DNA of 64,000 bases from NCBI GenBank assembly GCA_964399085.1, contig CAYNPN010000005.1:5328-69327 (forward strand). Direction: 5' to 3'. Of the stretch, positions 3,442-60,957 are shown piece after piece (the stretch's first letter is position 1; every line of letters begins with the position of its first letter). Below the pieces are notes generated by a model. That model did not search any database, had not been told where the DNA came from, and saw only the letters and a list, made by a program, of their open reading frames with translations. Source of the stretch: Candidatus Hadarchaeota archaeon (GTDB lineage Archaea > Hadarchaeota > Hadarchaeia > Hadarchaeales > JAGGTB01). The position numbers and the translations under genes are program-made.

Positions 3442-3738
3442 GTCGACGAGCCGGTGGCCGGCTCTCGGGGTGCTCCTGAGGAAACACCGCCCATCGGGTG
3501 GGACCGCAGGGTCGAAAAGACCCCGGCTGAGAGGTCGGACCCTGGAACAGAAACGATACCCTCCAGTCTTAACGCCATGATGTGGGGACACTGAGGTCGG
3601 GCTGGAAGGGATGGAACGGCCAATCTGCGGGATGCAAGGGCAAAATAGCCACCGATGAACTCCCGCTGGAGGTGGGTGGTAGCCCGCTAAGCTGAATGCC
3701 GGCAAGAACAGAAGGTGGGTTACGGCCGGCACGTCGAC
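3442..3738 (+). ncRNA. rnpB: RNase P RNA (archaeal type)
   Basis: GC-rich island with only junk ORFs. It has a CR-I-like GAGGAAACACCGCCC near the 5' end, GCAAGGGCAAAATAGCC in the middle, and a CR-V-like ACAGAAGGTGGGTTAC near the 3' end. Terminal helix P1 pairs GTCGACG (3442-3448) with CGTCGAC (3732-3738). Confidence 0.85.
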
Positions 3739-33590: not shown

Positions 33591-33978
33591 AATGTTTCTA
33601 AAGCCAATAATTAAATAATTTTTTAAAATTTTGAAGACCGCCTAGACTCCTCAACCCCGGAATTAACGGCGACGGAGTCTTAAGTGATATACTATACTTT
33701 CTTGCATGGTGCCAATGACGAGGAAATTTGACCTGAACATTTCTGTAGATGATGGCCTCAAAAGGCCTCTGAGGCACCATTGAAAATTGAACCATTTCCC
33801 ATTAGACGGAATCCCCAAATAACGCCAATAGAACTTCTCATTTTCAATCAATCTCTCAACGCATCAAAATAGGTATCGAATTCGTAGTCTCTAATAGGTA
33901 TCCCCCCAGTCTCTACCGATAATTATCACTTAATCCAAGTAAAATTTGCAAGAAAAGAGGCGGGAGATATACAGGGGG

Positions 33979-47326: not shown

Positions 47327-48559
47327 ATGAATCCTAAAATAACCGTCCTTGGCGGAGTAGGATCCGTCGGAAGTACTGCAGTAGAAGCGCTTGCATCCAG
47401 CGGTATTCCTTCCGAGATTATCATTGGAGATATAAATATTGACAAAGCGGATGAGTTGGCTGAAGATTTAAACGACGAAAAGATATCCGCTGTCAAAGTA
47501 GATGCAAACAAACCGGAGAGCATTAAAAATGCTATAGAAGGATCGGATGTTGTACTGAACTGCGTAGGACCCTTCTACGAATACGGTCCGAAAATATTGA
47601 GAGCGGTGATAGACTCGGGTATAGACTACGTAGATATATGCGATGATTTGGACGCTACGGAAGAGCTACTCGAAATGAATGAAAGAGCCGAGGAAGCAGA
47701 TATAACCGCTCTTATAGGGATGGGAAGTTCGCCAGGATTTGCGAATTTACTGGTCAAATACTGTGTCGAAGATTTGCTTGACGAAGTTGATTCTATCGAT
47801 ATTTATCACGCTCATGGAGGAGAGGAAACCGAAGGCCCTGCAGTGGTTAAACATCGAATCCATTCGATGTCTATCCCAATACCCGTCTACGATAATAGTG
47901 AGTTTAAGAGAGTCGATCTATTTAGCGAAGAAGGAAAAGCCTACGAAGAAACCGTGAATTTCCGAGATTTGGGAACTTATGATGTTTACCTGTATCCCCA
48001 CCCTGAGACCATAACTCTACCCGAACATTTTGAAGGAGTAGAAAGAGTCACGAACCTGGGATTAGTTCTCCCCCCGGAATACGCAAATTACATAAAATCG
48101 ATGGTCAAATTGGGACTTACAGATGAGGAACCAATAAATGTTCAGGGGAAAGAGATAGCTCCTTTGAATTTTGCAGTTGCGTCCATATTATCAAAAAGAG
48201 AGGAATTCATGAAGGAGGCGGGAATTGAAGGTCCGAGAGGTTGCCTTAGAATTGACATTGGAGGAAGGAGCGAAGAGGGCGAAGAGAGGACCTATGTATT
48301 TTCGATGTCTTCAACGAGTCAGGGAATGGGAAGCGGAACTGGTATTCCAGCTGCCGTTGGGGCCCTTCTCATGGGGAAGGGTAGTGTAACCGGTAAAGGT
48401 GCACTTCCCCCGGAGGCCTGCGTCAACCCTACTGATGCACTCGATATCGCCGGGGAAATAATGCAAACCGACCAGGGAGAGGGTCTACCGGTCCACGCGG
48501 AGGTAAAAGACGAAAACGGTGACACAATTAGAGAATTAGATATCGGAGATTTGTTTTAA
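47327..48559 (+). CDS. Saccharopine dehydrogenase-family NAD(P)-binding oxidoreductase
   Basis: The N-terminal Rossmann motif is ITVLGGVGSVGS. Length and the GMGSSPG segment are typical of the Sacchrp_dh family. Confidence 0.75.
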   Translation: MNPKITVLGGVGSVGSTAVEALASSGIPSEIIIGDINIDKADELAEDLNDEKISAVKVDANKPESIKNAIEGSDVVLNCVGPFYEYGPKILRAVIDSGIDYVDICDDLDATEELLEMNERAEEADITALIGMGSSPGFANLLVKYCVEDLLDEVDSIDIYHAHGGEETEGPAVVKHRIHSMSIPIPVYDNSEFKRVDLFSEEGKAYEETVNFRDLGTYDVYLYPHPETITLPEHFEGVERVTNLGLVLPPEYANYIKSMVKLGLTDEEPINVQGKEIAPLNFAVASILSKREEFMKEAGIEGPRGCLRIDIGGRSEEGEERTYVFSMSSTSQGMGSGTGIPAAVGALLMGKGSVTGKGALPPEACVNPTDALDIAGEIMQTDQGEGLPVHAEVKDENGDTIRELDIGDLF

Positions 48560-59707: not shown

Positions 59708-60070
59708 CTATGAGTTTCTGATTTTTTCTGTTATCTCTTTCAATTCTTCTTCATCTTTGTCCAAGTACAGATCCTCGTTTTTTTCCAAAAATTCTTCGTA
59801 TCGTTCATTCGTCGAGTCTATGTAATCAAAAATCTGGTCTACAGCTACAACGGGTTGGTCCTTTTTAGCCCAGATCATAATCTGGTCACCCCGGACTTTC
59901 TGAGAGTAAATAGGGCCCTTTAACGCCTTGGGGTTTTCAAAGAAGTACTCCCACACCAGTTCGGGATTCTTGTTCAAGGGTATCTTGATTATGACCAAAT
60001 CTGGTTTCTTCGGGTCTATGTCCACTGCCTCTATCTCATCTCTAATCGGCCGTACTGAATCCCAGTTCAT
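59708..60070 (-). CDS. Hypothetical acidic protein (120 aa)
   Basis: The ORF has acidic composition typical of this genome and no recognised motif. Confidence 0.5.
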   Translation of the reverse strand: MNWDSVRPIRDEIEAVDIDPKKPDLVIIKIPLNKNPELVWEYFFENPKALKGPIYSQKVRGDQIMIWAKKDQPVVAVDQIFDYIDSTNERYEEFLEKNEDLYLDKDEEELKEITEKIRNS

Positions 60071-60097
60071 ATTCCCAACAAGAAAAGGAGAAGTTCA

Positions 60098-60109
60098 AAA
60101 TATAAAAAA
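60098..60109. promoter_or_regulatory. AT-rich TATA-like element between the 120-aa gene and the GC-rich block (possibly bidirectional)
   Basis: AAATATAAAAAA lies about 30 nt upstream of the ATG at 60070 on the minus strand. It also lies about 25-30 nt upstream of the first GC-rich bases at ~60130 on the plus strand. Read on the minus strand it also forms a T6 tract. Confidence 0.35.
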
Positions 60110-60124
60110 CTATTTTGAAAATGA

Positions 60125-60795
60125 AGGAGGTCGTGTGAGGGGGTTCTTGCCCGGAGGCCGGGCTGCTACCGAGCGGTCTTTTCGGGCAAAACGGTTTGCC
60201 ACTCATTTGCCGATTCCCTGAACTTTCACAAGAACCACTACATCGAACACCATCTGCCCGGATTGGAGGCTCCATTGCCGGAGCTCGTGGCAAAACCTCC
60301 TCTCTATTAAACGCGGGGGAGCCTATCGTCCGAATCCTCGGCCAATCGGTCTTGGCATATAGACCTGGAACCTTAGCAGAAGGACTGACCCCCCCCCCAC
60401 GAATAAATTCGGGGGGTTCCACCCATTCACCCGTGCCATCCGGATTTCGGGCTACCGGTGGAACTGCCCCCGCCACAGACGGGTCTTTTTGCAGGTTCCC
60501 TACCTGAAACCAACTTGATTCCCACCAAAGGTGGGTTTACAGAGGATGGATTCGACGGTTCGGAGTTCAGGGTTCAGTCAGTGGAACCCCCGTTCCGGAT
60601 AGAAGCTTTAAGTGTGCAGGAAGGGTATTCGTTCCTCCCCGTCCTGACGCCCCCGACCGGCTTCGGGGACTCGAAGCTTACCCGAAACTCCGATAATGCG
60701 ATGACCGGGACGGTTATAAAGAAATTTCCGGAGAGGTCTGTGAAAGTATTCGCCATTCATCCCACCACTAAAGTGAGTGGGCTTTCTGTCGACAG
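60125..60795. ncRNA. Candidate large structured RNA of unknown family (strand unresolved)
   Basis: The block is GC-rich within an AT-leaning genome, and its overlapping ORFs on both strands have P/G/R/S-rich, non-acidic translations. It contains many perfect local hairpins. Examples are 60149-60163, 60185-60200, nested 60265-60300, 60389-60416, 60436-60461, 60521-60535, 60583-60596, 60651-60668 and 60761-60781. Confidence 0.55.
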
Positions 60796-60957
60796 TTTGT
60801 AAACTAGCAAAAATCTCGGAAAATATTGTACCAAATTATCACCTAACTATTCTCCGATTAGGAAGTGGAGCTTCAAAGCATTGTAGGTTAAAAAAATAGC
60901 TAAGAAATATCCTGCTTATCGGATATCTAGAACGGATCTAACCTTTAATTCCCGCGA

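Follow-up and report, generated by a model that had tools for sequence, protein, structure and literature searches.

We analyzed a 64,000-nt stretch of DNA (hereafter the window) from a Candidatus Hadarchaeota archaeon (contig CAYNPN010000005.1), in which a GC-rich block at positions 60125-60795 lies next to a gene for a 120-aa protein (59708-60070). The original prediction, made from the sequence alone, read this block as one structured RNA of about 670 nt from an unknown family, standing alone or serving as a long leader of the 120-aa gene. Our data show that part of the block is indeed a conserved and structured RNA-like element, non-coding and marked by compensatory base changes, but that the predicted size does not hold: conservation covers only 60385-60802 (~417 nt), read on the minus strand. 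As detailed below, this element is very probably a transposon.

The block stands out from its flanks in composition, as predicted: GC content is 55.7% over 60125-60795, but falls to 41.6% in the neighbor on the left, the 120-aa gene, and to 35.5% in the spacer to the right of the block. Within the window this level is not special, however, as 13 stretches, mostly coding, have 55% GC or more in 300-nt windows. The block was also said to lack a credible open reading frame (ORF) and to give basic translations, and both points were borne out. Its ORFs score -0.06 to 0.19 per codon on the genome's codon usage (0.31 +/- 0.07 for real genes), are mostly basic in an acidic proteome (median isoelectric point, pI, 4.65), and yielded no Pfam matches. 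The sole Rfam match in the window at curated gathering thresholds is the RNase P RNA (3446-3734). A tRNA mentioned in the original prediction was found neither by ARAGORN nor by Rfam, even at E<=5; any tRNA missed in the window may be intron-containing or split. The stated lack of signal recognition particle (SRP) RNA and group II intron signatures agrees with Rfam, which matched neither to the region even at E<=10, nor at that threshold any group I intron, OLE, GOLLD, ROOL, HEARO or IS605-orfB motif. At relaxed thresholds the region matched a single family, HgcC, on the minus strand and below its gathering threshold.

Collecting homologous DNA from archaeal genomes yielded relatives, but only for 60385-60802. 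These relatives lie in the MSBL1 archaeon SCGC-AAA259D18 (L014), in two metagenome-assembled genomes (L015 and its syntenic twin L029), and in Candidatus Methanohalarchaeum thermophilum HMET1. L014 and L015 were reached through an exhaustive HMMER search with a 114-aa plus-strand ORF from the block, which led to two short, differently truncated ORFs on contigs with homologous DNA. A scan of species-representative genomes identified five copies on one Methanohalarchaeum contig, MSDW01000001.1. These five copies share 92-97% identity with one another and 72-75% with the window copy, and have sharp, identical ends and unrelated flanks. The copies in L014, L015/L029, the window and Methanohalarchaeum all lie in different gene contexts, and copy length ranges from 378 to 437 nt.

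The element family looks rare in the data that we reached, comprising JGI metagenomes, IMG/VR, plasmids and phages. A 21-mer gave no match in the JGI metagenomes, and a degenerate 26-mer gave a single match there that a covariance model rejected as chance. Scans of viral contigs in IMG/VR returned chance 17-mer matches or none, and BLAST searches of plasmid and phage collections returned no match. Among proteins, word-based searches of a 5.8-billion-protein set with the 114-aa ORF and a 144-aa minus-strand ORF of the block found nothing, and no record matched the 114-aa ORF exactly.

The element occurs once in the window. Three independent assemblies of the same organism (GCA_905333535.1 and the Logan assemblies ERR5414649 and ERR5414699) break inside it, with contigs stopping at 60457, 60462 and 60488 and resuming at 60459 or 60759, the behavior expected of a repeat in short-read assemblies. 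A 39-nt stretch (60462-60500) is identical between L015 and the window, so that the breaks probably arise from sequence common to element copies or to co-occurring genomes. We also considered the variable region of a diversity-generating retroelement as their cause, which is ruled out because the window holds no second template-like copy.

The termini of the aligned copies resemble those of IS608. In IS608, TTAC is both the left cleavage site and the target site, and lies 19 nt 5' of the foot of the left hairpin IP-L; the left guide sequence GL is AAAG, the right guide sequence GR is GAAT, and TCAA lies 10 nt 3' of the right hairpin IP-R (PMC3201880). Read along the minus strand, the features at the locus are as follows:

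60799..60802, minus strand: TTAC abutting the left end; IS608-type target and left cleavage site, and predicted transposon-associated motif (TAM) for the nuclease TnpB.
60753..60798, minus strand: left end (LE), in which a 17-nt linker with AAAG as its last four bases precedes the subterminal hairpin IP-L.
60712..60722, minus strand: TATA-box-like motif TCTTTATAACC; the conserved RNA domain has its first helix ~20-25 nt downstream of it.
60385..60694, minus strand: conserved structured RNA domain of ~310 nt with helices H4-H13, a predicted scaffold resembling the omega RNAs of TnpB.
60385..60419, minus strand: right end (RE), consisting of GAAC (60416-60419), the hairpin IP-R (60396-60415) and a tail (60385-60395).
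60365..60384, minus strand: predicted guide segment TCCTTCTGCTAAGGTTCCAG, flanking DNA directly after the scaffold; its length is an assumption.
60125..60384, no strand: GC-rich remainder of the block, 56% GC, non-coding and outside the conserved element.

At the left end, TTAC is present in all eight aligned copies, and the DNA upstream of it is unrelated among them. Every copy follows the same layout of TTAC, 17-18 nt ending in AAAG (AAGG in L020 only), and a hairpin. In the window, AAAG at 60782-60785 corresponds to IS608 GL, and IP-L (60761-60781) reads CCCACTCAC-TTTA-GTGGTGGG; the helix that it forms (helix 3) is kept among the copies and includes one compensatory pair as well as G·U variants. 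A left end without the rest of the element is also found as a solo copy at L019 1042-1097.

The right end is equally regular, with GAAC, a hairpin and a 10-nt tail (11 nt in the window) ending in TCAG, or TCAA in L014. In the window copy, GAAC occupies the position of IS608 GR, IP-R reads CCCCCGAA-TTTA-TTCGTGGG on the minus strand, and the tail GGGGGGGTCAG ends in a TCAG that resembles a right cleavage site. The tails of the relatives are purine-rich and read AGGAGGTCAG, AGGACGTCAG or AGGAGGTCAA, and the sequence 3' of the right boundary is unrelated among copies. We distinguish type A elements with the right guide GAAC from types B and C with GAAG, and the tails end in TCAG, TCAA or TCAC. Right guide and right cleavage site covary at their fourth base, which is T/A in IS608, C/G in type A, and G/C in types B and C, with L014 as the exception. 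Neither a target-site duplication nor terminal inverted repeats are visible in the flanks and termini of the aligned copies. The element has the window's minus strand as its active (top) strand.

Part of the window's right end is peculiar to this copy. The C10 tract that the original prediction paired with a G-run (C10 on the plus strand, a G10 run at 60386-60395 on the minus strand) is confined to the window; relatives read CCTCCT or CGTCCT, that is, AGGAGG or AGGACG on the minus strand. The G-run may mean that this copy is decaying and its right end degenerate, or that the homopolymer was assembled wrongly.

To compare the two strands, we derived a consensus fold and pair counts from an alignment of eight sequences (A3). 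The minus strand folds at -97.4 kcal/mol with 97 pairs, versus -69.3 kcal/mol with 75 pairs for the plus strand. In the minus-strand structure 95.9% of cells pair, compared with 37-56% in controls in which the partners were slid. Ten pairs show compensatory changes, and no shuffle reached the observed covariation score. G·U cells outnumber A·C cells (131 versus 21), the signature of an RNA read off the minus strand, although this count leans to that strand since the structure was predicted there; an independent plus-strand prediction was poorer. For the 3' 112 nt, we added to A3 two divergent type B sequences identified with nhmmer, L016 9941-10062 and L015 422-548, and found compensatory changes in 14 of 29 pairs, a number reached in none of 500 shuffles. 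Even among the young Methanohalarchaeum copies, pairing is kept in 16 of 21 variable paired columns. Pairing is preserved across homologues of the ~417-nt element, and its interior is under selection for base pairing of the minus strand.

Upstream of the first helix of the RNA domain, all four lineages have TT(T/A)AT(A/G) at the same alignment columns, and the surrounding spacer varies and contains indels. This motif is a possible internal archaeal promoter. The domain itself includes a hairpin with a CUGAC loop (60569-60590) and a lineage-variable hairpin (60521-60535).

Of the hairpins folded by hand in the original prediction, three are real and conserved: 60396-60415 with its CGAA-TAAA-TTCG core, 60761-60781 (CCCAC...GTGGG), and the lineage-variable 60521-60535. 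Others fared less well. GGAAC-CCCC-GTTCC is not kept in relatives and competes with the conserved helix GGGTTC/GAACCC (60569-60590), and the hairpins at 60149-60300 are kept in no relative. The latter are within chance, because the part of the block that holds them, 60120-60385 (266 nt), folds like shuffled sequence (z = +0.41 and +0.77 against 200 shuffles). Taken whole, the block shows only a modest folding advantage over 20 shuffles, with z = -2.66 for the plus and -1.50 for the minus strand. The adjoining 60125-60384 also lacks detectable relatives. We found no homologue by a protein search with the 144-aa ORF that covers it, nor by BLAST and nhmmer in all fetched loci and in the plasmid and phage collections. 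A covariance model of the right end and scaffold (R1), run with filters off, did not match it.

The pattern of substitution shows that the element is not coding, as substitutions are even over codon positions (17/18/18, 26/19/27 and 32/24/33) and reading frames differ among lineages, both in the part upstream of PQTGLFAGS and, in L014, following a 26-nt deletion. A protein-coding homologue with a synonymous pattern was not found, and there is no excess of third-position changes. Amino-acid identity (73% and 54%) is lower than nucleotide identity (86.5% and 80.6%), and we found no conserved reading frame or Pfam domain within the element. Gene callers place "hypothetical proteins" across it at L014 490-819, L029 3399-3869 and L016 4929-5372; the MSBL1 protein KXA91642.1 is a spurious ORF.

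At relaxed thresholds, Rfam HgcC (RF00062) matches the minus strand of the window at 60372-60591 with 21 bits, and matches the same strand at the equivalent position in L014 (26.8 bits) and L015 (22 bits). A related HgcC-like match in L016, belonging to type C, scores 26.2 bits with Rfam and E 0.002 with R1. This match lies 56 nt downstream of a fragmented tnpB pseudogene, whose zinc-ribbon fragment matches Pfam PF07282 (Cas12f1-like TNB) with 46.3 bits. Its right end consists of GAAG, a hairpin and AGGAGGTCAC, the same architecture as the right end of the element. In L019, a second tnpB pseudogene abuts another copy. HgcC has been described to carry the right-end-like tetraloop of RNAs that overlap the 3' end of IS1341-type tnpB, and of an RNA that originates from a palindrome-associated transposable element (PATE), a gene-less derivative of IS200/IS605 consisting of a left end and a right end (Gomes-Filho et al., PMC4615843). 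PATEs often encode omega RNAs that need TnpB in trans (Meers et al., PMC10055086). TnpB of the IS605 family is reported to use such RNAs to cut vacant sites, so that the transposon is retained (10.1101/2023.11.20.567912).

The position of the scaffold fits a guide-bearing RNA of this kind. Conserved pairing reaches to 10 nt from the right boundary, beyond which the flank is copy-specific. The sequence of the predicted guide segment occurs once in the window, and the equivalent positions differ in every copy. No tnpB was found in or beside the element at the window, L014 or L015 loci, the state expected of a PATE. We also considered that the element might retain part of the TnpB C-terminus, and rejected this, as there was no Pfam match and tblastn with the tnpB fragments matched only L016 and L019.

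Further repeats related to the element, or resembling it, are as follows:

L016 9650-10062 (plus strand) and L015 422-690 (minus strand): divergent type B relatives; their terminal hairpin, wholly different in sequence, still pairs and has a UUUA or UUCA loop, and their tail is GGGGATGTCAC.
L016 2961-3386 and 8167-8586: GC-rich repeat family of ~430 nt in Methanohalarchaeum.
L016 6791-7101, L019 6038-6360 and L020 3530-3850: GC-rich repeat family of ~320 nt in Methanohalarchaeum.

L015 thus holds two different family members within 4 kb, the element and a type B relative. The other Methanohalarchaeum repeat families end in GGAAG, a hairpin, a purine-rich tail and GTCAC, and one of their copies lies inside the L019 tnpB pseudogene. 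These families, too, look like gene-less derivatives of IS200/IS605.

We consider it probable that 60385-60802 is a PATE-type element, that is, a non-autonomous, gene-less IS200/IS605 derivative, which carries an omega-RNA-type scaffold used in trans. The two parts of this reading differ in strength: we have high confidence that the element is a transposon, and lean with less assurance, though still to the affirmative, toward an omega-RNA function. The family is thus not unknown as originally predicted, since it has IS608-type ends, is multi-copy in Methanohalarchaeum, and is distantly related in its 3' half to HgcC and TnpB omega RNAs, at scores below threshold. In the mechanism we propose, the Y1 transposase TnpA, encoded elsewhere, would excise the top strand and insert it 3' of TTAC. 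The internal TATA-like box at 60712-60722 would drive a ~310-nt structured RNA that starts near 60694. This RNA would pass the right boundary (TCAG) into the flank, from 60384 downwards, and thereby acquire a guide like that of a TnpB omega RNA; because the scaffold ends at the right-end boundary, the adjoining copy-specific bases would form this guide. A TnpB nuclease acting in trans would then cut the element-free allele (TTAC plus flank), and recombination would restore the element.

Several observations weigh against this account. The covariation comes from just four divergent lineages, and that of the end hairpins is equally expected from recognition of DNA by TnpA. The HgcC scores of 21-27 bits compare with a gathering threshold of 50 and need insertions of ~100 nt (39-117 nt), and the ~310-nt scaffold is much larger than HgcC (130 nt). 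L014, with GAAC and TCAA, breaks the simple pairing rule between guide and cleavage site. The window copy has the G-run tail GGGGGGGTCAG in place of AGGAGGTCAG and may be defective. Neither tnpA nor tnpB is present within the 64-kb window, and no empty site was found, so we infer mobility in the window's lineage.

Another explanation is a stand-alone or domesticated HgcC-like RNA gene with a cellular role, derived from or resembling a transposon right end and without any use in homing, for example in regulation, or in guiding a TnpB-like repressor that is nuclease-dead. An RNA of this kind would account for an interior with 72-87% identity and compensatory changes across three archaeal lineages, for the lack of a nearby tnpB at all three loci outside Methanohalarchaeum, and for the copy that L015 and L029 hold at the same locus in two genomes; HgcC itself has been without a known function since 2002. 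A host gene, however, would have no need of the IS608-type end signals that every copy carries, TTAC and AAAG included, and would not be expected as five near-identical copies with unrelated flanks in one genome, clustered with tnpB pseudogenes and other repeat families having the same right-end tail. We therefore regard domestication as unlikely.

The two simpler explanations are less probable still. The reading as one ~670-nt structured RNA from an unknown family, or as a long leader belonging to the 120-aa gene, would suit a block that is one GC-rich, ORF-poor stretch, and the minus strand has no run of five or more T before the T6 tract at 60105-60110, which makes read-through from the element to that point conceivable. 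We nonetheless judge it very improbable, as conservation ends at 60385 and 60120-60385 folds like shuffles and has no homologue. As for a leader, none of the six fetched relatives of the 120-aa gene has the element upstream, including the closest available one (L007, 80% identity), and in other genomes the element adjoins unrelated genes; the block is accordingly not a conserved leader of this gene. The region upstream of the gene in L007 is 257 nt of AT-rich DNA with different upstream genes and no trace of the block, and a scan of genome contigs with the 120-aa protein found nothing. Least credible of all is a small protein gene, the 114-aa plus-strand ORF at 60458-60802, which is called in other assemblies and annotated as hypothetical in MSBL1. 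The window and L015/L029 all have this ORF open; with a codon score of 0.19 and a pI of 5.0 it is the least un-gene-like in the block, and it has two similar short ORFs by HMMER; stop-free frames run through the Methanohalarchaeum copies on the plus strand in three of five and on the minus strand in all five. Against this, substitutions are even over codon positions, frames differ by lineage, amino-acid identity falls below nucleotide identity, no Pfam domain is present, and the similar ORFs differ in their start and stop positions. We dismiss this explanation almost entirely, in favor of the PATE-type element.

Synteny between the window (60071-60957) and L007 (5744-6000) is interrupted exactly upstream of the 120-aa gene. 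At that place L007 has OCD and POR genes; in the window, the GC-rich block is followed by an acidic hypothetical protein of 250 aa, a secreted protein with a CBM96 domain, and helix-turn-helix (HTH) proteins. This region may be a variable island. Two origins of 60125-60384 were tried and rejected: a decayed gene or relic of the L007 neighbor genes, of which no trace was found, and a second degenerate copy of the element, for which nhmmer and R1 were null and the short repeats between the halves were not collinear. Speculatively, another such element may have decayed to leave this stretch; several of the Methanohalarchaeum repeat families are likewise small and GC-rich and have the same right-end tail.

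Elsewhere in the window, two sub-threshold Rfam matches, to snoR160 at 33709-33777 (plus strand; 34.1 bits, gathering 42) and to sR38 at 47636-47688 (plus strand; 20.8 bits, gathering 50), mark possible archaeal C/D-box guide RNAs.

As a sequence family the element is new; descriptions of PATEs with omega RNAs that are used in trans already exist. Notable features are the size of its conserved scaffold and its occurrence in different halophilic lineages of archaea. We tentatively raise a broader idea, which we think has less than an even chance of being right: that these 380-440-nt elements are selfish elements reduced to a guide RNA, having shed both genes and kept a ~300-nt scaffold, larger than that of HgcC, under purifying selection in at least three halophilic lineages, and that they parasitize the TnpA and TnpB of other insertion sequences or that some copies have been recruited by hosts as programmable RNAs. 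If so, the HgcC family, 20 years old and of unknown function, would gain a role as transposon right-end (omega) RNAs. More generally, our reading would replace a "giant unknown archaeal RNA" with a testable identity, for which strand, ends, target site and guide segment are predicted to the base. It would tie Rfam HgcC to IS608-like transposon ends, and extend gene-less TnpB-type guide-RNA elements to little-studied halophilic archaea of the MSBL1 and Methanonatronarchaeia type. It would also explain both the contig breaks in metagenome assemblies of this organism and the spurious "hypothetical protein" calls.

Compared with known systems, the ends of the element are closest to IS608. Both have a TTAC target and AAAG 5' of the left hairpin, with a spacing of 17-18 nt in the element and 19 nt in IS608, and in both a right hairpin is followed by a 10-nt tail, ending in TCA(A/G/C) in the element and TCAA in IS608. 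As in IS608 and PATEs, subterminal imperfect hairpins stand at both ends in an asymmetric arrangement, each with a guide tetranucleotide 5' of its foot. The element further resembles PATEs in lacking terminal inverted repeats, a target duplication, and any ORF or transposase gene inside it, and in the likeness of its left and right hairpins (CCCAC...TTTA...GTGGG). It differs from them in its length of 378-437 nt, far longer than a bare fusion of left and right ends, and in ~300 nt of interior that is conserved and covaries as RNA. Unlike those of IS608 and PATEs, its hosts are halophilic archaea (MSBL1, Methanohalarchaeum and the window's organism).

With HgcC, the element shares the order of its parts: a CUGAC-type loop caps the 5' hairpin, an internal stem follows, and after it come a terminal hairpin, capped by a UUUA loop, and the tail AGGAGGUCAG. 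It differs in scoring below the gathering threshold (50 bits) at all loci, in having an extra 5' domain of ~100 nt and a left end, and in its halophilic hosts, HgcC being one of the GC-rich RNAs of AT-rich hyperthermophilic archaea. Like omega RNAs (also called right-end element RNAs, reRNAs, or, for IS1341-type tnpB, sense overlapping transcripts, sotRNAs), its RNA would be read from the transposon top strand, with a scaffold that runs to the right-end boundary and a terminal hairpin whose loop is UUUA or UUCA, and the same right end stands beside the L016 tnpB pseudogene. Unlike in those systems, there is no tnpB ORF for the RNA of the element to overlap, and the scaffold is about twice the size of HgcC.

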